A stretch of 64,000 bases of DNA from Vulcanimicrobiota bacterium (GCA_050250895.1 JBFWNU010000001.1:2406210-2470209); one strand, 5' to 3'. Positions 5,734 to 33,902 are shown, numbered from the stretch's first letter. The notes: a model not told the origin generated them from the sequence alone. Program-made: numbers and translations.

Positions 5734-5851
5734 GGCCAGGGCTTCTCTTTGGCCAGGCCGCGTCCTTTTGAGAGGGCCAAAGGCTCCCTTTCGCGGTGCG
5801 TCGAACTCTAGTGGAGTGGGCGGTTTCTGGGTGTCTCGAATTGGCCTCGGG

Positions 5852-7138: not shown

Positions 7139-7139
7139 G

Positions 7140-10707: not shown

Positions 10708-11293
10708 GGCCTATACCCTGGTCGAGGTGCTGGTGGCAGCCTTTCTCATGAGCCTGTTGCTGACCGTGCTGTTTCAGGTGCTTTTTCCGCTGGTGCGAGC
10801 CTCTCACCGCAGCTACCGGCGCATCTCGATGCAAGAGGTGGGAGGTTTGGCTCTCGACCGCCTGGCCCGCCAGTTCGAGGCCACTCCGGCCGTGGGCGTC
10901 ACCCCGCCTCAGACAACGGCCCAGCAGGTAGTGCTGGCTCTTCATCCCATCGATTCGGTCTCGAGCAGCGGTCGCCAGTTCTATGCCGACCACCTCGAGG
11001 TGTTTCACTGGCGACGCGACAGCGGCCGCCTCATCCATGAAACCTGGACCGAGGCGGGCGTAGACCTCAGTCTCGAGCCACGCCGCCTGACCGCCATCGA
11101 ACTTCAGGCCGTTGTCGACAGCGACAACGGCAGCGAGCGGGTGCTGGCTCATGGAGTGACCAGCTTTGTGGTCGCCGCGGCTGGTAGCGGACCCGGCCTG
11201 GTATTGCCGCTCACGGTGACGCTCAAGCTCGAAGACCAGAGCGACAGGCTCGAACTGAGCCGGCGTCTTTACCTGATGAACTCTAGCCTCTAA
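10691..11293 (+). CDS. prepilin-type pseudopilin (GspJ/PilW-like)
   Basis: MRSGVRA|YTLVEVLVAAFLMSLLLTVLF with Glu at +5 and a hydrophobic helix. 17-nt overlap with the upstream gene. Confidence 0.65.
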   Translation: MRSGVRAYTLVEVLVAAFLMSLLLTVLFQVLFPLVRASHRSYRRISMQEVGGLALDRLARQFEATPAVGVTPPQTTAQQVVLALHPIDSVSSSGRQFYADHLEVFHWRRDSGRLIHETWTEAGVDLSLEPRRLTAIELQAVVDSDNGSERVLAHGVTSFVVAAAGSGPGLVLPLTVTLKLEDQSDRLELSRRLYLMNSSL

Positions 11294-11329
11294 CAAGACG
11301 TTCTTGTGACGGTCTTGTGGTGAGCTGTC

Positions 11330-14300: not shown

Positions 14301-14707
14301 GCCTCAAAGCCACCATCACCGAGGCCGACGTGCGCAAGACGCGGATGATCAAGCTGAAGGCTCGCATCCCCGGCCTGAGCGAGCCGCAGGCCGAGAAGTT
14401 GCTGGAGCAAGCCGTCCATCACCCCGACGGCTGGGACAAAGGCCTCGACGCAGCCGCGGCCGCCGCCGACCAGCGTCGCCAGCACATGTCGCAGTTGCTC
14501 GACCTGATGCCGACCCTTAACCGGCAAAAGGCCGAAGAGATGCTAGACCAGGCCGAGAACCATCCTGACGGCTGGGAGGCCGGCCTGGCTCAGGTTCTGC
14601 GCGGTGAGGTCGTCGGCGCTCCGGCCCAGCCGCCGACCCCGGCCGAGCTGTTGCTGGGCGAAGACTTTCTCAAGATTGGCGACATCGAAATCGGCATCCA
14701 GGACTAG
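11330..14707 (+). CDS. 1125-aa alpha/beta-hydrolase-fold protein with canonical EF-hand loop and long helical C-terminal region carrying three HPDG(F/W)DxGL repeats
   Basis: GHSEG (GxSxG nucleophile elbow); later Asp (GENDVQTP) and His (GLGHVF) candidates. EF-hand loop DADHNGKLSWDE (11944-11979). Repeats AHPDGFDQGL / HHPDGWDKGL / NHPDGWEAGL spaced ~46 aa apart (14270-14600). No N-terminal signal peptide. Confidence 0.7.
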   Translation: MTMNVRRQPFSVNTAPGVTLQGEMTLPADLKPGEKRPAIVLVAGSGPNDRDETMPSDITASGRLEKPFKTIADTLSDAGLIVVRYDKRGVNGPQTGDTANLDQALWRKTTGQDFIQDAQAVLHQVGQDPNVASVSVLGHSEGTLIAGALAAAGAPLASLILMGLVAQPFGQVVVHQVEGQEKAFFDGLPRQADGSVKAEGDLVALDADHNGKLSWDEMQGTFAKSMQEKLEQGPADELLGNKPIGWYRSWLEAPSNLEQMTKAAPHLAQVPILLMAGENDVQTPLASEALPMQAKLHSLGLVSQLKTYPGLGHVFSPDRDGTATFGPLDQTFVDDLKNWAVKTLLPDKPQPIVFGPRTYTFTPPALAESDLAQARTQLGTTKTLRRALQMQHKFLARTPFLEMQDQQFEPTLKWLQDNPFTKELLAPTAQFAFSLYQRADRLPYDSKDQTQEAPEVARARADRVGQLVADWHRQGLFQATLDGQALTTDQLVETLKTVNPGLGPDGLEFVSSKPGGEALKRFYHGDTKARRREVDQLESQARRDPKTGLRFFREARDSYLANQDTSIFREFGILLEEASSRPALYAQFSQAAPEILELYTECERFGLAAPEMAVSMHEVNRILFPVPLMAPEAVTADMLLPYFIGPDRSDRERAADLIEAVWMKQPESVTASMDQIIEHSPATRWVDHSLLGSHPEDALPWELARVAAQRHGWKPRPEQQDWTQAVQALKVERDPNPEPLARVQEAIAARTSLSQGQLLELHSTLEQLRANDKEAAWRGHLSRQLGQACPLEDSEVKAVMDGLAWSKLSDPAAPVELKAQFTLVDSQTRGRPALRREFLEHLGDGKVVLDVTQHDWRSMRGLTDEWFEHKLEPALRADNPTELVRQAAQSMVTLKEAHSHQFTMVYTQIQRYWDGKLAELGIDRGLLRAHAVNVKEEIAVLATVVAGAPQTVTTRLEQYNHMRESLPDLKTEEADRVFAELQAHPDGFDQGLKATITEADVRKTRMIKLKARIPGLSEPQAEKLLEQAVHHPDGWDKGLDAAAAAADQRRQHMSQLLDLMPTLNRQKAEEMLDQAENHPDGWEAGLAQVLRGEVVGAPAQPPTPAELLLGEDFLKIGDIEIGIQD

Positions 14708-15831: not shown

Positions 15832-16377
15832 TTAGTAAACCGGGTGGTAGAGCATGGCCACCGCTCCCGAGTCGAACTCGACCTGGTCGACCAGTTGCAG
15901 GTCGACCAGTTTCGAGAGCCCGGCCAAGAGGTAGGGACCGTGGCCGGCCAGTCTAGGTTGCACCACGAATTCGTACTCGTCGATCAAACCGAGTTCGGCC
16001 AGGGCCAGGGGAAGCTGGACACCTCCGGTCAAGAGTCCTCGACCGGGTTGTTGCTTGAGTCGGGTAACCGCCTTCGCCAGGTCGCCCTGGAGCAGTTCGG
16101 CGTTCCAGTCGACCTCGGTCAAAGTGCTAGAAACGACATATTTCTTGGCCGCCTCGATGGTGTGGGCGAAAGGCTCGGTCCAGGCGGGCATCGCTTGGGA
16201 CCGGGGCGAGCGAAAGGCCGTCTCCATCATTTCGTAGGTCACTCGGCCGTAGAGCAGGGCCTCGGCGCGTTCAATATTGGCGGTGTGGAAGCGATGCAAT
16301 TGCTCGTCGGGCACGCCGACCCGGTGATCGCAGCAGCCGTCTAAAGTGACATTGATGCAGTAGCGAAGAGGTTGCAT
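15832..16377 (-). CDS. dihydrofolate reductase-like protein (RibD C-terminal domain family)
   Basis: Internal Met (MQPLRYCINVTLDGCCDHRVG...) of the 202-aa ORF. Pattern ...LYGRVTYEMM...KKYVVSSTL...GGVQLPLALAELGLIDEYEFVVQPRLAG is typical of the RibD_C/DHFR-like family. Confidence 0.65.
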   Translation of the reverse strand: MQPLRYCINVTLDGCCDHRVGVPDEQLHRFHTANIERAEALLYGRVTYEMMETAFRSPRSQAMPAWTEPFAHTIEAAKKYVVSSTLTEVDWNAELLQGDLAKAVTRLKQQPGRGLLTGGVQLPLALAELGLIDEYEFVVQPRLAGHGPYLLAGLSKLVDLQLVDQVEFDSGAVAMLYHPVY

Positions 16378-16418
16378 GGCGCCGCGACTTCGCGACCTGC
16401 TATGGACGACCCCTGCCC

Positions 16419-16434
16419 GGTGATCGGTGTCACG
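16419..16434. promoter_or_regulatory. CRP/FNR-like palindromic site GGTGA-N6-TCACG, conserved upstream of cassette copies A and C
   Basis: ggtgatcggtgtcacg matches the TGTGA-N6-TCACA architecture at 4/5 + 4/5. An identical 16-mer occurs at 24228-24243. Confidence 0.4.
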
Positions 16435-16603
16435 CGGCAAAAGGAGTAGAGATAGCTACATGTCGCAGTCTAGATGTACCATTGGTTCGCAGAACGTGTA
16501 TTTTGTTGGTTGTATGGGTGTCCAAAGTTTGAAAAATAGTAAACAGAGGTTTTGTGTGGGGGGTAAAGAAGCACTGGGTTCGAGCATCCTTGGGGAGGTG
16601 GTC

Positions 16604-19600
16604 TTGGTTCGAGCGTCTCGTTTCTTTCTTCTTTTGCTGGGCTTGCTTTTGGTTGGCTGTGAATCCGGCCAACTGGTGGATGAGATCGAAAGAGGGCAAT
16701 CTCGGCCAATCTCCCATCGAAATCGTGTGTTGGCCGAATTGACTCTGCAAACCGAGAATGGCCCCTACAAGCTTGTGAAGGGGAGGGGGCTCATTCCGGC
16801 CGAAAATAGCCCGGTGCCCCAACCGCGTACGGGGGATGGCGTTCGCGCCAGAACCGGCGAGAGCATTCTGGCCGCGACTGAGCTGCCCCCGGAGTATTTT
16901 TTCGGAGCCCACTATCAGTTCGATGTGGACAAACGCAACTTCTTCATCGGCGAGGAGCCGGTAGGGACGGCCTGTGTTCGCTACAATAGCGAAGAATTCA
17001 ATAATCTTCCCCACAGCAGCGAAGCCTATCGCTTTGGCAACCTGGAGTTCGCTAGCCTGGGGGTGGCTGTCGGGCCTAACCAGTTTCCAGGCACCGCCTC
17101 GACCACCATGGTGGTGAGCACGCCCGCCGGGATTGAAGAGATCGAGATCCCTAAGATGGACGGCGACACAATCACCGTTTCACCACCAATCACCGTTCGG
17201 ATGGACTATGCCTACACCCCCATCCCCAATTCTAGCCTCTACTATGGGCGAACCGAGACGTTCGTCAACGGAAACTCGGTAGCGATCAGTTCTTCAAACT
17301 TCACCATTGGCGTGAGCGTCGAGCTGCCCTCGGTGCATGGGATCTATACTACCGAAAATCACGCCGAGCGACAGACCTATGCCAACGCGCCTTTCCAGCT
17401 TCAGGACAGCTTTGACGTGGGCAGTCAGGTCTTTGCTCGCAAGTTGGAGTTTGCAGATGACTTCACTCCGATGGAGTTCACGCCGGGCCAACCAGTGACG
17501 ATCACCAACAGCTTCCGCTGGGACTCCGGCCCAACTGATGTCGTCGATGCCCGGTGGGAGGTCATCGTCGAAGACACCCTGGAGAATCAGTTTACGAGAT
17601 TTCAAGAAGGCACCGGGACCGACATTTCGGCCACCTTCGACCTGTCTGATGTTTTGGCTCGCGGCCAGGTGCCCCGGCGTTACGTTCTCATCCCTGCCGG
17701 CAGCCCACTCGAGGCCAGTATCAAGCAGGAGCAGGCACGGTTGCGAGCTCGAGGCGAGGACATTCGCGCCCAGACGGACGTGATACCCCTGACCTATCGG
17801 GTCATCGCGAGCGCCGAGGCCTATCCTCGTAGCCGCGTCTTTCCGCTGGTCGGCTCGCAGTTTTATCAGGCACGCTACTACGCGGTGAATAGCCAGATCT
17901 CACCGGCCTTGCGCATCCGCGACATCAACATTGATCCCAACCCGTTCGAGCCCAGCCCCCCGGAGGTGGCCCCCGAAGACCGTCAGGTGGCCGTCATCTC
18001 GGCCTACGTCGACGCCAATGGCTTCGACGGTGGCTATGTGTTGGTCGAGCCTCGAATCTATGACCAGGCCGGCAACCTGGTGAAGACGTTCGAGGACCAG
18101 TATCCCATCGACTACGTCGAGTTGGAATGGGACGGCTATGACGATGAGGGAAACCCACTTGACCCGCAGGAGTTTCTGGTGGAGCTGCAAGCCCACGTCT
18201 GCGATTTCAGCGGACCGGCTCGCGAGATCTTGGCCGAGATTGCGCCCCAGACTCTGCAATTGGGTAGTTGTTCTCTGACGGGGGATGTCGCCCAGGCGCC
18301 CTTAGTGACCGGAGGGGCCCAGGGCGGTGAACTCAAGGTCTATGCAATCAACAAATTGATCGCCTGGGGTAAGAATCCGACCAGTGCTATCGTGACTAGA
18401 GCTCAGGAGGGCTTTCTGCGGGATGTCTATGCCGCTGGTCCTACGGCCCCGGGTGATCCCCAGCCCGCAAAGCTGAAATTGGAAGCCAGCAACCTCGGGC
18501 CGGTTGGAGGTGACGTTACTGTCGTCGCACGCGGGAATGTGAGCCAGGTGGACTCAGTAGCCGTCACACTAACAGACGACGACCACGACGGAACTTACAC
18601 GGGTGAGTTGTTGTTGACACCAGATTTCATTAAGGTCGGCGGGCCACTCACGGATGTGCAGGGTGAAGCGGGACGGATGACCTTCAGTGTCGGCGAGCGG
18701 CTCAACAATGAGGGTGGAGTTACCGCCGCGATCTTTGCCAACCTTCTCTCCGCCCTCGGTCCCGAATTCTACCCTTACCCCAAGCCCGCGATTTCTCTAG
18801 GCAAATTCGAAGAAGATTTGCTCGGGAGCCAGCTCACTCTCGCCAATGACGATGAGGCCACCGCCACGGCAAACAACCTGGCCAGTACTGGCTTTGAGGC
18901 GCTAACCCTAACGCTCAGGGTAGGAAGCGATGTGGTGGTTACAACCAAGGCCAAGGTTCGCCATCCCGCTGATGTTCTATTCTGGAATTTCCATGGTCTA
19001 CGCCACGGCTCACTCAGCCCCGAAAGCGAGATTGCCAAGAGAGAGAACCGGCTTCCTACGATACTCCTCACGCCCGAAGACTTTGTAGTGAAGCCGGTCG
19101 CAAGAACCGTAATGTTTGCCGCTTGCGATGTGCTGTGCCTGAACGACTACAACGGTGCGTGGCCCAACGAGTCGAACTTTGGCGGACGCCGCTGGTATGC
19201 CGCGATGGACACCCCGGGACACAACACAGTCTTGCTAGGATTCACGGCCCAGACAGGTGCAACTCTTACAACCTCTGAGGTCATCGAACTCTACGGAAAA
19301 AGGATTGATGACTATATCGCGGCGGGCGAAACGGACAGGAGAAAGATTCAGGCGCTGGCCTGGGTTAGGGCGAATCTCGAGGTTGGTCTCAACCTTCAAG
19401 CCGACGGCTCAACGGGTCCTGTGGATGCACTAAGAAGCCTGCAACTTCGTGCTTGCGCCTATGCAGCCGATAGCACGGGAGAGTACTTTTACTACATCCC
19501 TGTGCAGCATCGGCCCACTCAGGACCTTGCTCTGGTCTTGCAGAACGTCGAGACCACACCCGTGGTCAAAACTGCCGAGGGCATCTACAGAGTGCGCCGC

Positions 19601-19705
19601 GAGCATTGGGGTGAACCGGTCCTTTTCGACGTTAGGAGGCCAAAAGATGCACAACTTGTACTCGAAGTGGTGCGACACAACGATGGGACGGTGGAATTGC
19701 GATGA
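16604..19705 (+). CDS. large secreted lipoprotein (cassette A gene 1) with FlgD-Ig-like domain
   Basis: TTG start 5 nt after GGAGG. Lipoprotein signal MVRASRFFLLLLGLLLVGC (lipobox LVGC). FlgD-Ig-like block IRDINIDPNPFEPSP...YVLVEPRIYDQAGNLVKTFEDQYP...ELEWDGYDDEGNPLDPQEF. About 1033 aa; the start is inferred from conservation with copy C. Confidence 0.65.
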   Translation: MVRASRFFLLLLGLLLVGCESGQLVDEIERGQSRPISHRNRVLAELTLQTENGPYKLVKGRGLIPAENSPVPQPRTGDGVRARTGESILAATELPPEYFFGAHYQFDVDKRNFFIGEEPVGTACVRYNSEEFNNLPHSSEAYRFGNLEFASLGVAVGPNQFPGTASTTMVVSTPAGIEEIEIPKMDGDTITVSPPITVRMDYAYTPIPNSSLYYGRTETFVNGNSVAISSSNFTIGVSVELPSVHGIYTTENHAERQTYANAPFQLQDSFDVGSQVFARKLEFADDFTPMEFTPGQPVTITNSFRWDSGPTDVVDARWEVIVEDTLENQFTRFQEGTGTDISATFDLSDVLARGQVPRRYVLIPAGSPLEASIKQEQARLRARGEDIRAQTDVIPLTYRVIASAEAYPRSRVFPLVGSQFYQARYYAVNSQISPALRIRDINIDPNPFEPSPPEVAPEDRQVAVISAYVDANGFDGGYVLVEPRIYDQAGNLVKTFEDQYPIDYVELEWDGYDDEGNPLDPQEFLVELQAHVCDFSGPAREILAEIAPQTLQLGSCSLTGDVAQAPLVTGGAQGGELKVYAINKLIAWGKNPTSAIVTRAQEGFLRDVYAAGPTAPGDPQPAKLKLEASNLGPVGGDVTVVARGNVSQVDSVAVTLTDDDHDGTYTGELLLTPDFIKVGGPLTDVQGEAGRMTFSVGERLNNEGGVTAAIFANLLSALGPEFYPYPKPAISLGKFEEDLLGSQLTLANDDEATATANNLASTGFEALTLTLRVGSDVVVTTKAKVRHPADVLFWNFHGLRHGSLSPESEIAKRENRLPTILLTPEDFVVKPVARTVMFAACDVLCLNDYNGAWPNESNFGGRRWYAAMDTPGHNTVLLGFTAQTGATLTTSEVIELYGKRIDDYIAAGETDRRKIQALAWVRANLEVGLNLQADGSTGPVDALRSLQLRACAYAADSTGEYFYYIPVQHRPTQDLALVLQNVETTPVVKTAEGIYRVRREHWGEPVLFDVRRPKDAQLVLEVVRHNDGTVELR

Positions 19706-21555
19706 AAACGAAGATCGGGATGGTGACATTGACGCTTTGCCTTCTAAGCGGGGTCTGGGCTCAGGAGCCAGAGTTCCCGGCAGCGGACCCCGTGCGCCGC
19801 GCGATTCAGAGTTATGAACTACATGATTTGGATCGTGCCCTGGCCGAGTTCCTGGCCCTTGCAGAGAGTCATCGGGGAACTCCGGTGGGCTCAAATTGTC
19901 TCTTCTGGGCGTCAGATACTGCTCTACTCGCGGGGGACCAGGAGCAGGCACTGGCCATCCTTAACCGCATCACGCAAGAATACGCTGGCACTCACATGGA
20001 GCTTTCGGCAAGGCTGCGGCTCATTGAGCTTGTGCCTCCGAGCACTGGAGACGGAGCGACAGAAGCTTACGACGAACTCGCACAGCAGAATGGGGCACCT
20101 CCCCTTGCGGTGTTGATTGACCCGGCCCGGAAACTAGAGAACACGATCGCAATCCGGGCGTTGCCAGAAGAGTCGAGGAAGGGTCTCAGGTTGCTATACG
20201 TGACAGTCCTTGGCGAATTGAGTTTTCATCCCCCGCAGGAGGCCGCTGTCCTCGGGCAGGTTTTGCGGGGAGCGTTGGACCGTGATGGCGGCGCCGAGTT
20301 CTACGGCTCGTTGTATAACACCGCGAGGCGTTCACACGAGCGACGCCATCTCTGGTCGCCCACTCAGGAAGACTTTCAGAATCCCGTCGTGTCGCCTCTG
20401 AACCCTAGCGATGGTAGCACTGTCGCCCCAGGCGGAATGCTAGAGGCCCAGCTTTACATGGAAGACTTCTATGCTATGGGATTGGATCTGGCTACGCTGC
20501 GTGTTTCTCTGGACGGTCAGGATGTTACCGATTCTTCCACTTTCGAGTGTTCGGCCGGCCCGGAGTTCGTAGACGGGCAACCCTGGGAGGTGATTACCGT
20601 CCGCTCGCCCATGGCGAACCTATCGAACGGAACACACACGGCCACCGTTACCTGTCAGGTATACCTCTATCCGGGCCAGGGCCCGGGGCTGACGACGAAG
20701 ACCTGGTCGTTCACTATCGCCAATCAGGCCTCTGAGGCAGCGCTCTATCCATCGAAGGACTCGACCCTCCGACTCCGCGACCCCCATCTCAACGAGGGAG
20801 CCAACCCTAGACTCATCCTGGAGAAGATCCAGGGTAAGACCACTCACGCCCTGGTGGGCTTTGACCTGTCCCAACAGAACCTGACCGGCCTGACTTCGGC
20901 CAGCCTGGTCTTCACCATCGACCCCAGCGACTCTCCCACCGGCTGGGGCAATGGGCGCAACGTCCTCGCAGCCCCGATCTCGACCGGCTGGCTGGAGGGG
21001 AACGGCGTCGACTTCGGCGTGCCCAACGCGCAGAAGACCAGCGGGTCCGGCCCGGGCGTGACCTGGTTCAGTCCTGTCGATGAAGACATCAGCAACAACT
21101 ATGCCAACTCGGCCGTGAATTGGAACGGGGCCGGTGCGGCCAGCGGCCCTCCGACAGCCTTGGCGGTGCAAATCCATAACCATCAAACCGGAGAGGTCTC
21201 CTTCGATGTCACCCAGGATGTCCTCAACGGATCCTCGAGCTGGTTGGTGAGAAGAGAGGACGAGAACGTCGGCTCGCAAGTCCACTTCTACTCCAGGGAA
21301 GGTGGCGGAGCCTCAGCCGGCCCGCGCCTGGTCCTTCACTACGGTGCCTCGGCCAACAAACCCGCAGGAGACGCTCTGTTGGCCAGGGCCTGGGACACCC
21401 CGGTCGCGGTCCTTCGCAATCTCGCCGGGCTCGGGCTGTCGGGTGGCCCGATGACAAACTTGCTGATCCTGCAAGCCCGTTCGTCGGGCCTCGACATCCT
21501 GAGTGCGGGATTGCGCAGTCTGGTCGCCCGGCGCGAGATGGCCCTGCTCCTTTAG
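19702..21555 (+). CDS. secreted protein with TPR-like N-terminal region and DNRLRE-like C-terminal domain (cassette A gene 2)
   Basis: Signal peptide MKTKIGMVTLTLCLLSGVWAQ; ATGA overlap with gene 1. C-terminal pattern SKDSTLRLRDPHLNEGANPRLIL...ALVGFDLS...SASLVFTID...GWGNGRNV fits the DNRLRE/CBM96-like signature (D-x-T-L...N-x-G...L-x-L...F-D-L-S...A-S-L). Confidence 0.7.
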   Translation: MKTKIGMVTLTLCLLSGVWAQEPEFPAADPVRRAIQSYELHDLDRALAEFLALAESHRGTPVGSNCLFWASDTALLAGDQEQALAILNRITQEYAGTHMELSARLRLIELVPPSTGDGATEAYDELAQQNGAPPLAVLIDPARKLENTIAIRALPEESRKGLRLLYVTVLGELSFHPPQEAAVLGQVLRGALDRDGGAEFYGSLYNTARRSHERRHLWSPTQEDFQNPVVSPLNPSDGSTVAPGGMLEAQLYMEDFYAMGLDLATLRVSLDGQDVTDSSTFECSAGPEFVDGQPWEVITVRSPMANLSNGTHTATVTCQVYLYPGQGPGLTTKTWSFTIANQASEAALYPSKDSTLRLRDPHLNEGANPRLILEKIQGKTTHALVGFDLSQQNLTGLTSASLVFTIDPSDSPTGWGNGRNVLAAPISTGWLEGNGVDFGVPNAQKTSGSGPGVTWFSPVDEDISNNYANSAVNWNGAGAASGPPTALAVQIHNHQTGEVSFDVTQDVLNGSSSWLVRREDENVGSQVHFYSREGGGASAGPRLVLHYGASANKPAGDALLARAWDTPVAVLRNLAGLGLSGGPMTNLLILQARSSGLDILSAGLRSLVARREMALLL

Positions 21556-21597
21556 AAGCCCGAGCAACCCTGACAGGGCTCGAACAAGCCCTCGCAG

Positions 21598-21739
21598 AAC
21601 CGGTTCAAATGGCACTCAAAGCCGTTCCGCCTCGCATGGATGCCCAGGGGCGCCCTTACCTGGTCTGAGGACCTCTCCGACGAGATGTTCCGCTCCATCC
21701 TGCGCGGCGACTGCGGCCCCGAGCTTCAGGCCCTCTACA
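21598..21739 (+). pseudogene. remnant of the small AbiEii-partner gene (homolog of 29266..29574), frameshifted and truncated by the duplication junction
   Basis: atggcactcaaagccgttccgcctcgcatggatgcccaggggcgcccttac... is identical to 29266 onward except for a 5-nt deletion (ccttacctggtctga vs ccttacttcctctggtctga). Homology ends at ...ctctaca (21739). Confidence 0.5.
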
Positions 21740-22330
21740 GTTTGCCGCTTGCGATGTGCTGTGCCTGAACGACTACAACGGTGCGTGGCCCAACGAGTCG
21801 AACTTTGGCGGACGCCGCTGGTATGCCGCGATGGACACCCCGGGACACAACACAGTCTTGCTAGGATTCACGGCCCAGACAGGTGCAACTCTTACAACTT
21901 CTGAGGTCATCGAACGCTACGGGAAATGGATTGACGACTATATTGCGGCGGGCGAAACGGCAGGAGAAAGATTCAGGCGCTGGCCTGGGTTAGGGCGAAC
22001 CTCGAGGTTGGTCTCAACCTTCAACCCGACGGCTCAACGGGCCCTGTGGATGCACTAAGAAGCCTGCAACTTCGCGCTTGCGCTTATGCAGCCGACAGCA
22101 CGGGAGAGTATTTCTACTACATCCCTGTGAAACACGAGCCTACCAAAGACCTGGACCTGATTCTCCAGAATGTGGAGACTACTCCGAGAGTCAAGACCGC
22201 CGAGGGCATCTATAGAGTGAGCCGCGAACATTGGGGTGACCCGGTCCTTTTCGACCTTAGGAGGCCCAAAGATGCGCAACTTGTACTCGAGGTGGTGCGA
22301 TACGACGATGGGACGGTGGAATTGCGATGA
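21740..22330 (+). pseudogene. 3' fragment of a cassette gene-1 copy (duplicate of 19114-19705), frameshifted
   Basis: First ~180 nt identical to 19114 onward, then ~90% identity. A 1-nt deletion (aacggcaggag vs aacggacaggag) splits it into two ORFs (21756..22058, 22046..22330). No 5' part or signal peptide. Confidence 0.7.
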
Positions 22331-24078
22331 AAACAAAGATCGGGATGGTGACATTGACGCTTTGCCTTCTAAGCGTGGCCTGGGCCCAGGAGCCAGAGTT
22401 TCCAGAAACAGACCCTGTGCGCCACGCTATTCAGAGTTACGAGTTGCATCAGTGGGATCGTGCCCTGGCCGAGTTCCTGGCCCTCGCAGAGAGTCATCGG
22501 GGAACGCCGGAGGGCTCAAACTGTCTCTTTTGGGCGTCAGATGTCGCTTTGCTCGCGGGGGACGAGGCGCAATCGTTGGCTATCCTCAACCGCATCGCGC
22601 AAGAATACGCCAGCACCAACATGGGACTCTTGGCGAGGCTCCGTCTCATTGAGCGGACATCCCCGAACTCCAGAGAAGAAAGGGTCGCTGCCTACGACCA
22701 ACTCGCCCAAGCGAAAGGCGCGCCTTCTCTCGCCATCTTGATCGACCCGGCCCGGAAAGTGGAAAACATGATGAAAATCCGGTCATTGCCAAGGGAATCC
22801 AGAAACGGTCTCAGGATGCTCTACGCGAGAGTCGTTGACGAATTGGGTTTTCACCCCCCGCAGGAGGCCGCTGTCCTCGGGCAGGTCTTGCGGGGAGCGT
22901 TGGACCGTGATGGCGGCGCCGAGTTCTATGTCTCGTTGTATGACGCGGCGAGGAACTCACACGAGTTGAGGGGTCTCTGGTCGCCCACTCAGGAAGACTT
23001 TCAGAATCCCGTCGTGGCGCCACTAAACCCTAGCGATGGTAGCACTGTCGCCCCAGGCGGAATGCTAGAGGCACAGCTTTACATGGAAGACTTCTATGCT
23101 ATGGGATTGGATCTGGCTACGCTGCGTGTTTCTCTGGACGGTCAGGATGTCACCAATTCTTCGACTTTCGAGTGTTCGGCCGGCCCGGAGTTCGTAGACG
23201 GGCAACCCTGGGAGGTGGTTACCGTTCGCTCGCCCATGGCGAACCTGTCGAACGGAACACACACGGCCACCGTTACCTGTCAGGTATACCTCTATCCAGG
23301 CCAGGGCCCCGGCATCACAACGAAGACATGGTCGTTCACTATCGCCAATCAGGCCTCTGAGGCAGCGCTCTATCCATCGAAGGACTCGACCCTCCGCCTA
23401 CGCGACCCCCATCTCAACGAAGGCGCGAACCCTCGGCTCATCCTGGAGAAGATCCAGGGCAAGACCACTCGTGCTCTGGTGGGCTTTGACATGTCCCAAC
23501 AGAATTTGACCGGCCTGACTTCGGCCAGCCTGGTCCTCACCGTCGACCCCAGCGACTCTCCCACCGGCTGGGGCAACGGGCGTAACGTCCTCGCGGCTCC
23601 GATTTCCACCGGCTGGCTGGAGGGGAACGGCGTCGACTTCGGCGTGCCCAACGCGCAGAAGACCAGCGGGTCCGGCCCGGGCGTGACCTGGTTCAGTCCT
23701 GTCGATGAAGACATCAGCAACAACTATGCCAACTCGGCCGTGAATTGGAACGGGGCCGGTGCGGCCAGCGGCCCTCCGACAGCCTTGGCGGTGCAAATCC
23801 ATAACCATCAAACCGGAGAGGTCTCCTTCGATGTCACCCAGGATGTCCTCAACGGATCCTCGAGCTGGTTGGTGAGAAGAGAGGACGAGAACGTCGGCTC
23901 GCAAGTCCACTTCTACTCCAGGGAAGGTGGCGGAGCCTCAGCCGGCCCGCGCCTGGTCCTTCACTACGGCGCCTCGGCCAACAAACCCGCAAAAGACGCT
24001 CTGTTGGCCAGGGCCTGGGACACCCCGGCCGCGGTCCTTCGCAATCTTGCCGGGCTCGGGGGACTGGTGGCCCGATGA
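22327..24078 (+). CDS. cassette B gene 2: secreted TPR-like/DNRLRE-like protein, C-terminally truncated by a frameshift
   Basis: N-terminus ~85% identical to 19702..21555; C-terminal domain nearly identical. A 1-nt deletion near 24058 (ctcgggggactgg vs ctcgggctgtcgggtgg) gives an early stop; the homologous stop is at 24176-24178. Confidence 0.65.
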   Translation: MKTKIGMVTLTLCLLSVAWAQEPEFPETDPVRHAIQSYELHQWDRALAEFLALAESHRGTPEGSNCLFWASDVALLAGDEAQSLAILNRIAQEYASTNMGLLARLRLIERTSPNSREERVAAYDQLAQAKGAPSLAILIDPARKVENMMKIRSLPRESRNGLRMLYARVVDELGFHPPQEAAVLGQVLRGALDRDGGAEFYVSLYDAARNSHELRGLWSPTQEDFQNPVVAPLNPSDGSTVAPGGMLEAQLYMEDFYAMGLDLATLRVSLDGQDVTNSSTFECSAGPEFVDGQPWEVVTVRSPMANLSNGTHTATVTCQVYLYPGQGPGITTKTWSFTIANQASEAALYPSKDSTLRLRDPHLNEGANPRLILEKIQGKTTRALVGFDMSQQNLTGLTSASLVLTVDPSDSPTGWGNGRNVLAAPISTGWLEGNGVDFGVPNAQKTSGSGPGVTWFSPVDEDISNNYANSAVNWNGAGAASGPPTALAVQIHNHQTGEVSFDVTQDVLNGSSSWLVRREDENVGSQVHFYSREGGGASAGPRLVLHYGASANKPAKDALLARAWDTPAAVLRNLAGLGGLVAR

Positions 24079-24227
24079 CAACCTTGCTGATCCTGCAAGC
24101 CCGTTCTTCGGGCCTCGACATCCTGAGTGCGGGATTGCGCAGTCTGGTCGCCCGGCGCGAGATGGCCCTGCTCCTTTAGGATTCTCGGATTTGACAATCC
24201 GGCCGAACGCCGGGCTGCACGATGCCC

Positions 24228-24243
24228 GGTGATCGGTGTCACG
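24228..24243. promoter_or_regulatory. second copy of CRP/FNR-like site ggtgatcggtgtcacg
   Basis: Identical 16-mer to 16419-16434, within a ~30-nt conserved block (cccggtgatcggtgtcacgcggcaaaa). Confidence 0.4.
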
Positions 24244-24412
24244 CGGCAAAATGAGTAGCGCCAGCTACATGTCGTAGCCTGATTGTTCTTTCGGTTTGCA
24301 AGTCGCATCTTCTGGTAGTTTGAGGGGTGGCAAAAGTTTGAAAAATAGTAAATAGAGGTTTGGTGGGGGGGGTAAAGAAGCACTGGGTTCGAGCAATCCT
24401 TGGGGAGGTGGT

Positions 24413-27341
24413 CTTGGTTCGAGCGTCTTGGAGTCGATCCGCCGTGTTAGGTTTCTTGGCTGGCTGGTTTGCCATAGGCCTTGTCGCTTGCGAGAGTTCG
24501 AGGGTGCTCGACCAAGTGGAAACACCCGCACCAGGTCGAACACCTCGAACAGGGGCCGAGTCCTGGCCGAGTTGGCCCTCAGGACCGACGAGGGAGAGTT
24601 CAAAGTCGTGAAAGGCGCCGGCAAGGTTGCCCTGGAGAAGCAGCCGCGCGAGGAGAAAGTCGCGACCAGGGGCGTGTTGGACAACCCGGGCTATTCTTTC
24701 TTCGGGCACCGGCAATACGGCGACTTCGAGTTTTTTCGCCTCGACGAGGACAACCCGGTAGGCTATCTTCCTTACTCCAGCAGCGATGCGGTTTCGAGCC
24801 GGCTGCCAGGGATTTCCGGCGGCGGCTACCGATATCGCATGATGGGATTCGTTAGCCTGGGCGTGAGCGGCGATCCTCATGTACCCGGCCAATCTTCGGT
24901 CGAACTGGTCGTCTCGACACCCGACGGCATCGATGAGGTCGAGGTGCCGACCCTCGATGGCGACACGGTCACGGTGGCTCCGCCCATTACCCTGCGCCGG
25001 GTTCAAACCGTGACCAGCACCGGTGGAGTGGTGTCTCAGCGGGTCGAGACCTTCGTCAACGGAGTCTCGCTCGGGGTCGACTCGTCGAGTTATCTGGAAA
25101 TTGGGTTGAAAATTCCGTCGGTGTCCGGCGACTACCAGGTGAGCACTCACGGCCAGCGCTCGATCAACTATGACGAGCCGGTCAACGATAGCTACGATCT
25201 GGCCTGGACCATCCCGGTTCGCAAACTGCAGTTGGCCGAGAGCCTGGGGCCGGTCGAGGCGACCCCGGGACAGCCCATCATCATCAGCAATCGCATCACC
25301 TGGGACAGTCCGGGCGAGGTTGTGGATGCCAAATGGACTGTGACCCTCAGTGATGTCTTCGACGAGAACTATGAATTCTACGAGGGCACAGGAGAGATGT
25401 CTCGGCCACCTTTGACACCTCGAGTTTTCAGGCCAGAGGGACGACGCCGCGACGTTACCTGCTGATTCCCGCCGGTAGCTCGCTGGTGGACATGCTCAAG
25501 GCCAAGCAGGCCGAACTTCTTGCTCGGGGCGAAGACATCCGGGCCCAGACCGACCTGGTTCCTTTGGTCTACGAAATCTTCGCCAGCGCCGAAGCCTTCC
25601 CGCAGCAGGAAGTCTTCCCGAACTCTGGGGTGCAATTCTATCAGGCTCGCTACTTTCTGCTCAGCGAGTCGCAGGCCGAGCCGGCCATCCGCATTCGCGA
25701 TCTGAGCGTCGACCCCAATCCCTTCGAGCCCAGCCCGGTGGCCCCCGAGGACCGTCAGGTGGCGACGATCTCGGCCTATGTCGACGCGGTGGGCTTCGAC
25801 GGCGGCTATGTGGTGGTCGAGCCTCGCATTTACGACCAATCGGGAAACCTGGTGCGAAGGTTCGAAGACCAGTATCCCATCGACTACTTTGAGCTGGAGT
25901 GGGACGGTTATGACGATGAGGGCAATCGGGTCGAGCCTCAGGAGATCACGATTCAACTGAGTGCCCACGTCTGTGACTTCGCGGGCCTGGCTCGTGAGAT
26001 CGCGGCAAAGTTATCGCCTGAGATCTTAGCACAGGGTTGTTCCCTCCCGTCAGACGCCTTTCTGGTGGCTCAAGTTGGAACGCCACTAAATGGTGTGATT
26101 CAGGTACGTTCTGGAACTAACCTGGTTGCTCAAAGCTTTCATGGTACTCCGAGTTCGGCCGATCTGGCCAGGTTGAGAACAGTCTTTCCCGACGGGCGCA
26201 ACGGCGTCAACAACACGTTAGAGATATCCGCTTCCGGGTTCACCGGGAATCCGCCATCGAGCATTGAGATTGTTCTCGAAGGGTCTGCGAGCAGCACTTC
26301 ATCGGCCCCTATGATTCTAAATCAGGCCAACAACTATACCACAAGTTTTACGCTGACACCTGGCCTGATCAGAACCGGCCAGCTTGGCCCTAGCATCACG
26401 TTTTCGGACTCGGTGTTGAGCGTGACGGGCGGAGCGCAGCTGTTGTTCGAAGGGTCGCTCATGGGAAGCGGCGTTCCGTATCCGGGCCCAGACCCGACCT
26501 CTTTGGGAACCTACAAGGATGGGTCCTCGGCCTCAGAGGCAGAAAATACCGCGAGCAACGTTTCCAGCCTGGGGTATGAAACCGTAGAGATTAGAGGGAC
26601 GGCGGTTCATTTTCAAGCATTGCAAGGCTTAAGGTGAGACACCCGTCCGAGGTCTTTTACTTCGTGCAACATGGATCCGGAACCGGAGAGATCGATTTGG
26701 GGGGTAACCAATCCTTGAACCCGGGTCAGAATATTACCCGTTCGGATTGCACCTCTTTGAAAACTCTGATATTCACAGCCTGTCGGGGCTTGGTGCTCAA
26801 TGATTATAACAATCTATATGAAAACCATCGCCCATTCGCGGATATGGCGACCCGAAGGCAATTGGACTTCGGGGGTCCCAAATGGTACAACATCACAGGT
26901 GCATCCGACGCGTTTGCCCCGTTTTCCCCAACCGAACGGAGGACAGTGCTTCTGGGATTCAACCACGTTGCACCCGCTAAGCTGGCCGCGGATATTCTCG
27001 ATGTCTATCGACTTGCCTTGGGAGATTTGCGAGGAAAGATTAACCAGGGCGACCTAACTGTCAAGAATCTTGAACCGCTGGCCTGGATGAAGGCCAACCT
27101 AGCGGTTCTCCAGGGCGCGAGTGGCTCAGAACTGGCGAGAGGCTTGTGCCTGAACGCGTGCGCTTACGATACTGAGTATTACTATTATATACCGTTTGAT
27201 CGATTCGACCCGACCGAAGACCCGTTTCGTTCAACGCGCGAGGTTCATCGTGTTCCGCGTGGAGACTGGAACACAGATCTCACTCGAGTTGAGTGGATTA
27301 CGACGCCGAAGCGGGTCGGCAGGATGGTTACCATACCGTAG
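24413..27341 (+). pseudogene. cassette C gene 1: large lipoprotein homolog of 16604..19705, disrupted by at least three frameshifts
   Basis: Signal peptide/lipobox frame (VLGFLAGWFAIGLVAC) differs from the body frame (24428..25465). A 1-nt deletion near 25395 (gagatgtctcggccacc vs gaccgacatttcggccacc). A -1 shift at 26634/26637. The three ORFs together are ~55-70% identical to copy A. Confidence 0.6.
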
Positions 27342-27349
27342 GAGGATAC

Positions 27350-29212
27350 GTGCAAGGATTGAGATTGATTTTGATAATTCTCTTACTCTCCATCTCAGCT
27401 ATTGCTCAGCATGTAGGTGACTACCAGGAATTTGTGGCCACGCCGGAGTTTCTGGAGGCTGACCGCCTGGCGGGATTAGGTCAATTGGATGAAGCGCTCA
27501 CGATTTTTGAGAATATCGCGACACAGAACCCCCGTACGACTTTAGGCGCTCGAAGTCTTCTCGCGGCGATAGCTTTGAGAACGAGCCGCGCCAATAATGA
27601 CCGTTTGATCAACCGACTAATTACGGAGTTCAGTGGCTCCCGCTACGAGATCATCGGCAAACTCGTCCAGACGGCCGCTGGATTTACCGATGATGATGAA
27701 GCGCGCATAGCCGCACAAGATGCATTGGCTCAGAGTTTTGGAGGGCCCGGACTCTCCTCGATTCTCAACTCCGAAGACCGGAACACTCTTGTAGCAGAAT
27801 TGCGCGCGCTACCGTTTGAGACTCGCATGGGGTTAGCGCCTGTCTATTACTCTAACTTTGGAGGTCTTCGCGGCCTCGGTAGAGTCGATGACGCCATCAG
27901 TCTCGCGAGGTTCAATCAGGATGCTTATGCTGATGTAGAGGAAACCCTCGAGCACTCATTTAGAGGAGATCTACGTTATGCTCTCATGGTCAAGCAATAT
28001 GGGGGAGGCGTCTCAATAGAAGCACAACCGTCGTCAGACCCGGTGGTCGTGCCGACTTCGCCCAGCCCAAACCAAGTGCTGACAAGCCTTTCGACGCTTG
28101 ATTTCTCGATAAACGGGGGGGATTTTCGTCAACCGGGTGTGGACTTAAACAGCCTCGTCGTGACTCTGGATGGTGAGCCGCTTACAAGTTTGTCATTCCG
28201 CTTTGAGAGTGGGATTCTCGCTGAGAATGAAGTTTACGAGCGCCTTCTCGTCTCGCTGACTGTCCCGGACCTGTCACCTGGCCAGCATCAGGTGACGGTC
28301 AAAGCCAGCGTCAGGGGATACCCTGGGACAGGAGCCGGAACCACCACAGCCTCTTGGAGCTTCGAAATAGCCAGCGCCCAATCCACCCAGACTCTACCAG
28401 TCACGAAAGACTCCACCCTCCGCCTACGCGACCAACATCTCAACGAGGGAGCCAACCCGCGGCTCATCCTGGAGAAGATCCAGGGCAAGACCACTCACGC
28501 CCTGGTGGGCTTTGACCTGTCCCAACAGAATTTGACCGGCCTGACTTCGGCCAGCCTGGTCCTCACCGTCGACCCCAGCGACTCTCCCACCGGCTGGGGC
28601 AACGGGCGTAACGTCCTCGCGGCTCCGATTTCCACCGGCTGGCTGGAGGGGAACGGCGTCGACTTCGGCGTGCCCAACGCGCAGAAGACCAGCGGGTCCG
28701 GCCCGGGCGTGACCTGGTTCAGTCCTGTCGATGAAGACATCAGCAACAACTATGCCAACTCGGCCGTGAATTGGAACGGGGCCGGTGCGGCCAGTGGGCC
28801 ACAGACCGCCTTGCCGGTGCAGCTCCACAACCATCAGGCCGGAGAGGTCTCGTTTGATGTCACCCAGGATATCCTCAGCGGGTCCTCCAGCTGGTTGGTG
28901 AGACGAGAGGACGAGAATGTCGGCTCGCAGGTCCACTTCTACTCCAAGGAAGGCGGCGGAGCCTCAGCCGGCCCGCGCCTGGTCCTTCACTACGGCGCCT
29001 CGGCCAACAAACCCGCAAAAGACGCTCTGTTGGCCAGGGCCTGGGACACCCCGGTCGCGGTCCTTCGCAATCTCGCCGGGCTCGGGCTGTCGGGTGGCCC
29101 GATGACAAATTTGCTGATGAGCACCCTGCAAGCCCGATCGTCGGGCCTCGACGTCCTGAGTGCGGGGTTGCGCAGTCTGGTCGCCCGCCGCGAGATGGCC
29201 CTGCTCCTCTAG
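27350..29212 (+). CDS. cassette C gene 2: secreted protein with distinct helical N-terminal region and DNRLRE-like C-terminal domain
   Basis: GTG start after AGGAGG. Signal peptide VQGLRLILIILLLSISAIAQ. C-terminal ~280 aa nearly identical at nucleotide level to copies A and B (STLRLRDQHLNEGANPRLIL...LVGFDLS...). Confidence 0.65.
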   Translation: MQGLRLILIILLLSISAIAQHVGDYQEFVATPEFLEADRLAGLGQLDEALTIFENIATQNPRTTLGARSLLAAIALRTSRANNDRLINRLITEFSGSRYEIIGKLVQTAAGFTDDDEARIAAQDALAQSFGGPGLSSILNSEDRNTLVAELRALPFETRMGLAPVYYSNFGGLRGLGRVDDAISLARFNQDAYADVEETLEHSFRGDLRYALMVKQYGGGVSIEAQPSSDPVVVPTSPSPNQVLTSLSTLDFSINGGDFRQPGVDLNSLVVTLDGEPLTSLSFRFESGILAENEVYERLLVSLTVPDLSPGQHQVTVKASVRGYPGTGAGTTTASWSFEIASAQSTQTLPVTKDSTLRLRDQHLNEGANPRLILEKIQGKTTHALVGFDLSQQNLTGLTSASLVLTVDPSDSPTGWGNGRNVLAAPISTGWLEGNGVDFGVPNAQKTSGSGPGVTWFSPVDEDISNNYANSAVNWNGAGAASGPQTALPVQLHNHQAGEVSFDVTQDILSGSSSWLVRREDENVGSQVHFYSKEGGGASAGPRLVLHYGASANKPAKDALLARAWDTPVAVLRNLAGLGLSGGPMTNLLMSTLQARSSGLDVLSAGLRSLVARREMALLL

Positions 29213-29265
29213 AAGCCCGAGCAACCCTGACAGGGCTCGAACAAGCCCTCGCAGAACCGTTTCAA

Positions 29266-29574
29266 ATGGCACTCAAAGCCGTTCCGCCTCGCATGGATGC
29301 CCAGGGGCGCCCTTACTTCCTCTGGTCTGAGGACCTCTCCGACGAGATGTTCCGCTCCATCCTGCGCGGCGACCGCGGCCCCGAGCTTCAGGCCCTCTAC
29401 ACTGGAAGGCTGCTGCGGGAAGCCAGAATGGCCGAAGTCTGGTGGTACCTCAAACCTCAGGATATAGCCGACCGCTGGCCTGAGGTGGCGCGTCATCTCG
29501 GCCGGGCTCGCCAGTTCTGGCATGAGCTACTGGAGGCCTGGCGTGAAGCCGGACGCGTTTCCTGGCAACCTTAG
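29266..29574 (+). CDS. small protein, putative partner/antitoxin of the downstream AbiEii-family nucleotidyltransferase
   Basis: 102-aa ORF overlapping the downstream NTase gene by ~50 nt. A disrupted copy sits behind cassette A. Function inferred only from gene context. Confidence 0.45.
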   Translation: MALKAVPPRMDAQGRPYFLWSEDLSDEMFRSILRGDRGPELQALYTGRLLREARMAEVWWYLKPQDIADRWPEVARHLGRARQFWHELLEAWREAGRVSWQP

Positions 29575-30187
29575 CCCGCTCCAGGCCGAACTTCTGAAGG
29601 CCTTTCAGGGTGAGGGGTTCTTTCTGACGGGGGGAAGCGCCCTGGTTGGGTTCTACGGACATGACCGGGTGACCCGAGACCTGGACCTCTTCACTCGCAG
29701 CCACGAGGCCTTCGAAGAAGGTCCGGGTTGGCTGGGCGCAGCTGTCGAGGCCCTCGGAGCCAGCCTGGATCCGATCAGGACCTATCCGGCCTTCCGCCGC
29801 TATCAGGTATGCCGCGGCGAGGAGCAGACTCTGGTGGACCTGGTCTTCGAGCCGGTTCCGCCTGTCTATCCGCCGCGACCCATTCCAGGCTCCCGCCTGG
29901 CCCTTGACCTGCCCGACGAGATTGCGGTCAACAAACTGTGCGCTCTGGTTGGTCGGGGAGAACCTCGCGATCTGGCCGACCTGCTATTCTTGGATCGGTT
30001 CGGCGTGGATCTCGGGCGGGCTCTAGAGTTGGCCTCACACAAGGACGCAGGAGTCGGCCCTGATACCCTGTTGCTGGTGCTGCCCGCCGTTCCGCTTTCG
30101 GGCGACCCGGAGAAATTGGCGGCCCTGCGTGATTTTCGAGACGACTGGATCGGTCGCCTCAGGCTAGAAGTTCTACCGCCGCAGTGA
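29522..30187 (+). CDS. nucleotidyltransferase, AbiEii/AbiGii (DUF1814) toxin family
   Basis: FFLTGGSALVGFYGHDRVTRDLDLF matches the AbiEii N-terminal motif (GG[ST]AL...YG..R.[ST].DLD[FL]); 221 aa. Confidence 0.65.
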   Translation: MSYWRPGVKPDAFPGNLSPLQAELLKAFQGEGFFLTGGSALVGFYGHDRVTRDLDLFTRSHEAFEEGPGWLGAAVEALGASLDPIRTYPAFRRYQVCRGEEQTLVDLVFEPVPPVYPPRPIPGSRLALDLPDEIAVNKLCALVGRGEPRDLADLLFLDRFGVDLGRALELASHKDAGVGPDTLLLVLPAVPLSGDPEKLAALRDFRDDWIGRLRLEVLPPQ

Positions 30188-33812: not shown

Positions 33813-33902
33813 GGTCGGCTTGAGAAACGCCCGGTGCCCAACCGGGCGTTCTCGTTTCTCTGTCTGAAAGGCGAGGGGCGGTCTGGTATTGAATTCTATT
33901 CA

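Follow-up and report, generated by a model that had tools for sequence, protein, structure and literature searches.

A recombining three-copy array of a rare two-gene module with a clan-CD-like peptidase domain and a candidate partner protein in a Vulcanimicrobiota genome

In Bacteroides, paralogous C10 protease genes are coupled to genes for staphostatin-like inhibitors (PMC3462683). Another kind of coupling is found in polymorphic toxin systems, for which Tox-Caspase domains, lipobox-anchored polymorphic effectors and recombination with standalone cassettes have been described (Zhang et al., 2012; PMC3482391); peptidase toxins that act at the surface have secreted or transmembrane immunity proteins (PMC3482391). 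A third point of reference is the DNRLRE domain, which has relatives in archaeal surface proteins, S-layer proteins and disaggregatase, and which occurs in polysaccharide lyases as CBM96, an alginate-binding module (PMC9971899). Here we describe a locus that can be compared with all of these. It lies in a stretch of 64,000 nucleotides (nt) from a soil bacterium of the phylum Vulcanimicrobiota (GCA_050250895.1, JBFWNU010000001.1:2406210-2470209; hereafter the window), and it consists of three tandem, recombining copies (A, B and C) of a rare two-gene module, two of which are decaying. Gene 1 encodes a predicted lipoprotein with a clan-CD-like C-terminal domain and gene 2 encodes a predicted secreted protein with TPR, Ig-like and DNRLRE-like parts. 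We favour, at slightly better than even confidence, the interpretation that the two products are a surface peptidase and its cognate binding partner, inhibitor- or immunity-like, encoded in a paralog array that is subject to birth, decay and gene conversion.

Cassette A (16604-21555) is intact, as a preliminary description of this DNA had claimed and as its open reading frames (ORFs) confirm. Like all cassettes, genes, upstream regions and tails of the array, it is on the plus strand. Its first gene, g1A (16604-19705), is an intact ORF of 1033 amino acids (aa); the GenBank call begins at 16460 and gives 1081 aa. The second, g2A (19702-21555), is an intact ORF of 617 aa whose start shares 4 nt (ATGA) with the end of gene 1. 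In the g1A product a lipobox signal is followed by a beta-rich body and, at the C terminus, by a clan-CD-like peptidase domain of 284 aa (18851-19702). The lipobox pattern [LVI][ASTVI][GAS]C is present in g1A (...LLLLGLLLVGC, followed by ESG) and in the gene 1 of copy C, g1C (...AIGLVAC, followed by ESS), and a lipobox of the LxGC type is kept in most full-length gene 1 relatives. By these signals the gene 1 product is predicted to be a Sec/lipobox-exported, membrane-anchored lipoprotein, and the earlier statement that the module encodes a lipoprotein and a secreted protein is supported. The label 'FlgD-Ig lipoprotein' fared less well. FlgD_ig (PF13860) scored 19.6 bits in g1A, 21.1 in a g1C fragment and 26.3 in a homologue at locus L003, below the gathering cut-off of 27; such scores suggest an Ig-like sandwich in gene 1 whose membership in the family is not established, and the label misses the main feature of the protein, its C-terminal domain.

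A full HMMER pass over 1.84 billion representative proteins found just 39 relatives of gene 1, about 30 of which have the C-terminal ~280 residues. The pair belongs to no family library and is very rare, in support of the claim that it is not a described system. In an alignment of 23 sequences of the C-terminal domain (about 27% mean identity), H48, C92, D99, N101 and W115 are invariant and G49 is conserved in at least 90%. The g1A motifs around His48-Gly49 and Cys92 are 'FHG' and 'FAACDVLCLNDYN', and the family motifs are HG, sCxxLdLnDYN, GFE, LGYN, AWxxAN, ACA and YYYI. AlphaFold2, run with the domain alignment, produced a caspase/gingipain-like fold (pLDDT 86.6, pTM 0.86). The model has the alpha/beta/alpha sandwich of clan CD and the dyad in the order His(-Gly) then Cys after adjacent beta-strands, with strand 42-45 preceding His48 and strand 86-89 preceding Cys92. 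A Foldseek search of the PDB with this model returned nothing significant, Pfam searches and profile searches of PDB sequences placed the domain in none of the existing families C11, C13, C14, C25, C50, C80 and CHAT, and gene 1 had no tblastn match in collections of plasmids and phages. A sortase-like reading of the motif 'TLxxxC...DYN' was dropped after the fold search. From the model and the conserved residues we conclude that the gene 1 end is a putative new family of clan-CD-like cysteine peptidase domain with a His-Gly...Cys dyad, and we infer that this domain is catalytic.

The g2A product begins with a signal peptide. A TPR region (about residues 28-215) and an Ig-like sandwich (about 229-340) follow, and the rest is made up of a probable DNRLRE domain and a helical tail at the C terminus. 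The TPR region has tandem helix-turn-helix repeats that form a TPR superhelix, and its best structural matches are the periplasmic organisers YfgM, YbgF/CpoB, BamD and LpoP. DNRLRE_dom was matched by all nine members of the gene 2 family (best E 6.6e-14); with the DNRLRE model NF033679, g2A and the gene 2 of copy C, g2C, scored 33.5 and 32.2 bits, just under the cut-off of 34 bits. The domain is CBM96-like and probably glycan-binding. The tail ends in a helix that is kept across the family ('YRxWL' in relatives), and part of it is missing from the gene 2 of unit B, g2B. The N-terminal TPR-Ig part of g2C is 27% identical to that of A, and its 3' 800 nt are about 93% identical to both A and B. 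What had been described as a different N-terminal domain in g2C is the same module in a divergent form.

GenBank records g2A as 372 aa and g2B as 420 aa, starting from internal Met codons and leaving out 19702-20437 and 22327-22815, respectively. The two ORFs are open for 617 and 583 codons, however, with a good signal peptide at the start. Public protein records therefore lack the TPR domain, and neither g2A nor g2B was present at full length in a collection of 15 billion proteins. In an exact-sequence look-up of contigs, g2C and the GenBank product of g2A were not on record. Scans with a gene 2 profile found four loci in genomes and five in metagenomes; a word-indexed homologue search with the nine-sequence profile added no new proteins. 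One relative consists of two tandem gene-2-like genes with no gene 1 upstream (positions 8984-12328 of locus L007, from the Candidatus Xenobia metagenome-assembled genome (MAG) JBBKWP010000369). The second of these genes has a TPR-type N-terminus, is nearly identical to the first for a stretch and then breaks off within the DNRLRE domain. L007 is another recombining gene 2 array in the same phylum.

Adjacent gene-1-like and gene-2-like genes, often with a 4-nt overlap, are present in unrelated metagenomic contigs and MAGs (Candidatus Xenobia, Verrucomicrobiota and others). A gene 1 with the clan-CD end was followed by a TPR-Ig gene in 9/9 loci (cassettes A and C, L002, L014, L016, L017, L018, L019 and L020), where the two genes overlap or are 0-100 nt apart. 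Of these loci, six came from additional contigs that encode clan-CD gene 1 relatives, and in each of the six the first ~350 residues of the next gene were homologous to TPR-Ig. By contrast, the TPR-Ig start was found in none of the three loci with other gene 1 ends (L003/4, L005/9 and L008/13), whose gene 2 relatives have unrelated N-terminal domains on the same DNRLRE half. The DNRLRE half is itself optional: L016 and L019 lack it, and L017 has another part in its place. The similarities of the two modules correlate pairwise (Spearman 0.69, from comparisons that are not independent). This pairing, together with the correlated similarity, is the pattern expected if TPR-Ig binds the peptidase domain specifically.

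Based on these data, we propose a model for the module. Gene 1 would encode a lipoprotein peptidase that faces the surface or the periplasm; gene 2 is translationally coupled to it through the ATGA overlap. The TPR-Ig module would be a dedicated partner that binds the peptidase domain and restrains or directs it. Restraint seems the most likely effect, of the inhibitor or immunity type seen in protease-inhibitor operons, and the DNRLRE domain may tether the partner to an envelope glycan. We infer the physical binding, the inhibitory role, the glycan binding and the cellular location. Three copies of gene 2 are open or nearly so, compared with a single intact gene 1, and the differences between g2A and g2B fall mainly on synonymous sites; both facts fit a protective role, but they are not decisive. 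A PorU-like arrangement, in which gene 1 would process the gene 2 tail, was dropped because the tail is common to gene 2 proteins with other gene 1 ends, and it is the gene 2 N-terminus, not the tail, that co-varies with the gene 1 end.

Several observations weigh against this model. No Pfam family was found for any of the 23 domain members even at E<=5, and searches of PDB sequences with two domain profiles gave chance-level matches only. Residues 342-617 of g2A, the DNRLRE half, were modelled at a pLDDT of only 20-35. At 617 aa, gene 2 far exceeds known protease inhibitors or immunity proteins. The co-occurrence counts were drawn from related sequences and are not independent events, and the co-occurrence fits an adaptor, chaperone or substrate role equally well. 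Last, an intact g2C beside a broken g1C would arise by chance with an estimated probability of about 0.15 at the frameshift density of g1C.

Another possibility is that gene 2 is not an inhibitor but a targeting or scaffolding subunit, or a substrate. DNRLRE would bind a polysaccharide, TPR-Ig would recruit the peptidase, for instance for the maturation of S-layer or envelope proteins or for feeding, and the array would be a by-product of neutral birth and death. The tight translational coupling of the two genes is consistent with such a role. The TPR is a general protein-docking module, its best structural matches here are periplasmic organisers, and DNRLRE relatives in S-layer proteins, disaggregatase and polysaccharide lyases (CBM96; PMC9971899) point the same way. 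However, the DNRLRE half is dispensable in some pairs (L016 and L019), and gene-2-like genes exist without gene 1 (L007). Additionally, an adaptor specific for g1C should decay with it, yet g2C is intact. We consider such a role for gene 2 quite unlikely.

The gene 1 body proved to be combined with more than one kind of end. It is homologous to L003/P0030, L008/L013 and P0012, all of which have another C-terminal domain. This alternative end (L003, 1-1647; L013, 1-1416; P0012, residues 560-787) carries the motifs HPxNxxGTPE, NDxSLxxGGxF, HxEHRxGxxxD and HxH. By these motifs it looks like a murein endopeptidase of the LAS/MepA type, and P0012 has a Pfam match to Peptidase_M74 (E 0.003) that is below threshold. 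A third type of gene 1 end is present in L005/9; the L005 sequence looks transglutaminase-like to the eye, a reading that we do not claim. Profile searches of the PDB with the C-terminal domains of classes 2 and 3 gave chance-level matches only, so that the designation 'LAS/M74-like' rests on the motifs and the sub-threshold Pfam match.

Exchange of ends is also visible at the strain level. A related strain (L001, from Logan DRR438474) is 94% identical on the RibD_C side of the array and 90% identical in the first 1.5 kb of the gene 1 body. Past window position 18301 it has an unrelated gene 1 3' end of 1.4 kb, which encodes a clan-CD domain only ~30% identical to that of A. Thus, the gene 1 end has been exchanged between close relatives. 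In the same strain, 313 nt that cover the gene 1 start codon and lipoprotein signal are missing (window 16451-16763, opposite L001 positions 496-500). The gene 1 of this strain would start at 'MAYKLVKG' and is probably inactive or mislocalized, although the gap could be one of assembly. Elsewhere, foreign cassettes of this family adjoin genes for a DDE transposase, a Tn3-type transposase, a phage-integrase-type protein and a resolvase (L016, 1-5719; L019, 4095-5252 and 11196-11765).

The main rival to our model, sharing most of the evidence with it, is a polymorphic effector-immunity system used in antagonism between bacteria. Gene 1 would then be a lipobox-anchored effector whose conserved body carries exchangeable hydrolase ends, and gene 2 would encode the secreted protein that confers the matching immunity. 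Cassettes B and C would have been displaced or orphaned, with their gene 2 copies kept as a guard against the effectors of neighbours. The body homologues with other ends, L001 with its entirely different gene 1 3' end beside the same RibD_C neighbour, and the co-variation of the start of the downstream gene with the gene 1 end all speak for this possibility. So do the survival of gene 2 beyond gene 1, the tandem gene-2-like genes of L007, the integrase, transposase and resolvase genes next to cassettes and, at the present locus, an AbiE module and a lower G+C content. On the other hand, Pfam revealed no domains of the delivery routes T5, T6, T7, Rhs/TcdB, PVC and MuF, and no known delivery apparatus (T5, T6, T7, Rhs or PVC) adjoins the array. 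Gene 1 has a Sec/lipobox signal only, and it is not obvious how a lipoprotein that stays anchored to its producer would enter a target cell. In unit B, the gene 1 fragment begins inside the domain as a partial, near-identical copy and is not a complete alternative toxin module with a recombination handle. Furthermore, a multidomain gene 2 whose DNRLRE half is common to the partner classes is unlike known immunity proteins. We regard an effector-immunity function as possible but doubtful. If it were nevertheless correct, the array might belong to a new Sec/lipoprotein-borne class of polymorphic envelope effectors, a suggestion that we make only tentatively. This class would combine an Ig-rich body with exchangeable hydrolase ends (clan-CD peptidase, LAS/MepA-like metallopeptidase and at least one more) and with end-matched, DNRLRE-anchored secreted immunity proteins; the array would record effector turnover with orphan immunity genes kept, and a lipoprotein-based route would be added to the polymorphic toxin repertoire.

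We mapped the array by self-BLAST of the window and with a repeat finder. The comparison bore out, almost to the base, the earlier claim of a real three-unit paralog array. The region upstream of cassette A (16414-16603) extends 27 nt into the start of the divergently oriented RibD_C gene (15832-16440, minus strand) and is repeated 5' of cassette C, the two copies (16414-16618 and 24223-24428) being 84% identical. Behind cassette A there is a tail (21556-21739), which is a copy of the DNA 3' of cassette C and 96-99% identical to 29213-29401. Unit B copies A from 19114 onward, as had been stated (A 19114-21555 corresponds to B 21740-24179 at 90.7% identity with two gaps), and its end, previously given as 24178, is at 24179. 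It contains a gene 1 pseudogene fragment (21740-22330, equivalent to 19114-19705) without the 5' part or a start codon, and g2B (22327-24179), which is open for 583 aa up to a premature stop at 24076-24078. A spacer of 43 nt (24180-24222) that is unlike the A or C tails follows. Cassette C then has its own upstream region (24223-24428), the pseudogene g1C (24408-27341) with three frame changes, and g2C (27359-29212), an intact gene of 617 aa identical to AB7S38_39140. The C tail (29213-29401), the original of the tail copy behind A, enters an ORF at 29266-29574. Similarity to C is highest at the 3' ends (A 20753-21739 against C 28404-29401, 93.6%; B 23378-24179 against C 28404-29212, 93.3%), and only 72% in the middle of gene 1 between A and C.

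The novel joint was found at 21739/21740, exactly where it had been placed. It reads ...CCCTCTACA joined to GTTTGCCGCTTGC (...CTCTACA joined to GTTTGCC...), and it fuses the end of the tail copy to an internal gene 1 site, in the codons of the presumed catalytic-Cys motif FAACDV. Sequence to the left of the joint copies 29213-29401; that to the right copies the DNA from 19114 onward. No microhomology at the joint was seen in a three-way comparison of 21710-21770, 29372-29432 and 19084-19144. Unit B is without the 184-nt tail that A and C have, and it fits precisely into the interval between units A and C. Thus, the 'tandem-duplication junction' of the preliminary description is a visible novel joint, but not the product of a simple tandem duplication of one unit.

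The frameshifts reported for B and C were likewise confirmed. Unit B has a 1-nt deletion after 21960, in the gene 1 fragment, and another near 24060, in gene 2; neither is in a homopolymer. The latter stops gene 2 at 24078, with the loss of the last ~40 aa of the tail, and homology runs on past this point to the old stop at 24177-24179. In a tblastn comparison g1C, which is 41% identical to g1A, aligned to it in three segments that lie in frames 3, 2 and 1 successively. The breaks are at about 24528-24545 (just past the lipobox), 25393 and 26593; the one near 25393, inspected in detail, is a plain loss of 1 nt in non-repetitive sequence. Even so, g1C retains its lipobox (LVAC) and the His and Cys motifs 'VQHGSG' and 'FTACRG', and the gene 2 of cassette C is an intact 617-aa ORF. 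Only cassette A can make the full protein pair.

A mis-joined or collapsed repeat, together with polishing errors, could in principle have created the extra units and the frameshifts, and this concern is raised by the MAG source of the sequence and by the break of one assembly inside the repeat. Two GenBank assemblies hold the array proteins: AB7S38, which is fragmented (contigs of 88,217 and 46,555 bp), and AB7J86, with a contig of 3,947,236 bp, in which the array proteins have consecutive accessions (MGE4201216 to MGE4201223). In AB7S38, the 88,217-bp contig has g1A (30240), g2A (30235), another locus and, running to the contig end at ~23620, part of g2B (30225). The 46,555-bp contig begins at ~23847 with the end of g2B, including its frameshifted ...GLGGLVAR, and continues with loci 39125-39135 and then g2C (39140). 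The break is therefore confined to ~230 nt (about 23620-23847) in which the copies are nearly identical. g1A is 100% identical to the MAG protein AB7S38_30240, the two assemblies agree in sequence for g1A, g2C and the annotated parts of g2A and g2B, and g1C appears as three separate loci in both, judging from locus-tag and accession numbering. Because the second assembly repeats the A-to-B order, and hence the joint, as well as the g2B frameshift and the three-piece g1C, the array is no assembly artefact. The passage from the end of B to C is shared as well by these assemblies, which have different locus-tag prefixes. In addition, the five indels are outside homopolymers, the three in g1C lie in sequence without a close paralog that could mislead polishing (at best 72% identity to A), and long intact ORFs are numerous elsewhere in the window (1125, 795, 731 and 648 aa), which argues against a generally high indel error rate. 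An artefact is thus highly improbable.

Identity among the copies ranges from 63% to 100% and changes in blocks. Per 100 nt, the identity between A and B runs 100, 95, 96, 89, 76, 92, 89, 88, 77, 63, 77, 95 and so on to 100, 100, 100. In the shared 3' region, B agrees with C against A at about 20880-20990. No copy differs from another at 20999-21140, and at 21144-21305 A and B match while C departs from both. There are 72 variable sites, which form 14 runs where 44.2 would be expected, and none of 100,000 shuffles gave so few. The longest run of identity between A and B is 362 nt at an overall divergence of 9.25% (P about 1e-13). These switches of the nearest relative along the sequence show that gene conversion is real, and the earlier claim of conversion within the paralog array is statistically clear. 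Synonymous divergence between g2A and g2B varies from 0 to 0.96 per 50 codons (overall dN/dS 0.24), which indicates that the heterogeneity stems from history, that is recombination, and not from protein constraint. The most divergent A-B block (about 20000-20150, 63% identity) may have been imported from an allele that is absent from the window.

Surface or secreted products, one complete cassette, defective copies and a clear conversion mosaic would also fit programmed variation of the silent-cassette (vls, pilS) type, with A as the expression site and B and C as silent donors for segmental conversion that would vary a surface-exposed protein pair and so help to evade phage or predators. However, there are only two donors, and neither recombination signal sequences nor a dedicated recombinase was seen. 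Cassette C retains its own upstream region, 84% identical to that of A, and an intact gene 2; it is thus a decayed full cassette and not a promoterless donor. Conversion has homogenized the conserved DNRLRE part and has not diversified it (dN/dS along gene 2, 0.05-0.3), and g1A, g2C and the annotated parts of g2A and g2B are invariant between the two assemblies. Programmed variation is very unlikely in our view. The preliminary suggestion of a locus for adhesin or antigenic variation is possible, but the evidence does not favour it over a peptidase module with a cognate partner.

How did the array arise? Between A and C, the end of gene 1 is 31% and the start of gene 2 is 27% identical; the two are as divergent from each other as from cassettes of other metagenomes; they may be old paralogs or separate acquisitions. 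A and C have a common left boundary, including the 27 nt of RibD_C, and a common tail of 184-189 nt, which indicates that a whole-unit duplication or conversion has linked them. Unit B starts at an arbitrary point in gene 1 and is tailless between the A tail and the C upstream copy; this requires an illegitimate join and at least one further recombination. We propose that two old, divergent cassettes, of A type and C type, came to lie side by side, and that illegitimate joining inserted the partial copy B between them. Repeated gene conversion would later have homogenized only the DNRLRE-coding 3' ends and brought in foreign blocks. Gene 1 would have decayed in B and C afterwards, with the gene 2 copies remaining open.

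The array differs in composition from its surroundings. G+C content across it (16001-30000) is 53-62%, with the minimum of 53% at 26001-28000, against 63-66% in the flanks, which suggests foreign or island DNA. Downstream, an ORF of 102 aa without a Pfam match (29266-29574) overlaps the start of a gene for an AbiEii-family nucleotidyltransferase toxin (29522-30187; Pfam E 5.9e-14) and presumably encodes its antitoxin. The first 136 nt of this ORF are duplicated behind cassette A (about 21604-21739). Scans for tRNAs and Rfam families found the array empty, and promoter and terminator scans gave counts equal to the shuffled expectation and were uninformative. Upstream, a cluster at 5732-11293, 6-10 kb 5' of the array, encodes a Ser/Thr protein kinase (5732-7138), a GAF-fused type II secretion (T2SS)/type IV pilus platform protein F (6975-8726), a 731-aa ORF without a Pfam match (8129-10324) and a protein with a prepilin-type N-methylation motif (10691-11293). 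An S9/S33-type hydrolase of 1125 aa (11330-14707) lies 3' of this T2SS-F/prepilin cluster. Further out, 1355-1786 contains tandem repeats with units of 85 nt (2.9 copies, 94% matches) and of 71 nt (2.1 copies). A dispersed repeat of 195 nt (228-421 and 1081-1274, 76% identity) lies near a minus-strand ORF without a Pfam match (465-1514). On the other side of the array, the ORF at 33834-35003 has a strong match to MATCAP (PF08014, microtubule-associated tyrosine carboxypeptidase, E 1.5e-50), an unusual annotation in a bacterium.

In sum, the locus offers a peptidase-like domain family that no library recognizes, with about 30 representatives among the proteins searched and a strictly co-occurring partner, in a phylum (Vulcanimicrobiota/Eremiobacterota) that is almost unstudied. 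The pair is ready-made for studying the control of a clan-CD enzyme at the bacterial surface. Additionally, the array is a clean natural case of concerted evolution acting on a single gene domain: the DNRLRE half has been homogenized to 93-100% identity and the partner-specific half stands at 27%.

With respect to known systems, the gene 1 domain has no detectable sequence relationship to the clan CD families (gingipains C25, clostripain C11, CHAT, separase C50, metacaspases C14 and legumain C13), and it differs from them in its own motifs and in an extra helical and beta C-terminal part. The gene 2 C-terminal half resembles DNRLRE/CBM96 in that it matches the DNRLRE model throughout the family; unlike CBM96, it has no carbohydrate-active enzyme attached, and g2A is just under the curated cut-off. 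Polymorphic toxin systems (PMC3482391) share two features with this locus, a conserved body with exchangeable hydrolase ends and an end-specific downstream gene. Partial 3' copies with the partner gene downstream, replacement of ends between strains, and mobile-element or island contexts are further likenesses. The differences are that no dedicated delivery was found here, that the partner is a large secreted multidomain protein, and that unit B is a duplicate fragment. The staphopain-staphostatin systems and the C10 Btp/Bfp systems of Bacteroides likewise have several paralogous protease genes per genome, each with a specific partner gene (PMC3462683). Their proteases are papain-like (clan CA) and their inhibitors are beta-barrels of ~100 aa, whereas the peptidase domain described here is of clan CD type and has as its partner a TPR-Ig(-DNRLRE) protein of 370-670 aa with a signal peptide. 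As genome dynamics, the array is nothing out of the ordinary; the pair of proteins varies known kinds in a new way, with a clan-CD-like family and its obligate TPR-Ig partner.

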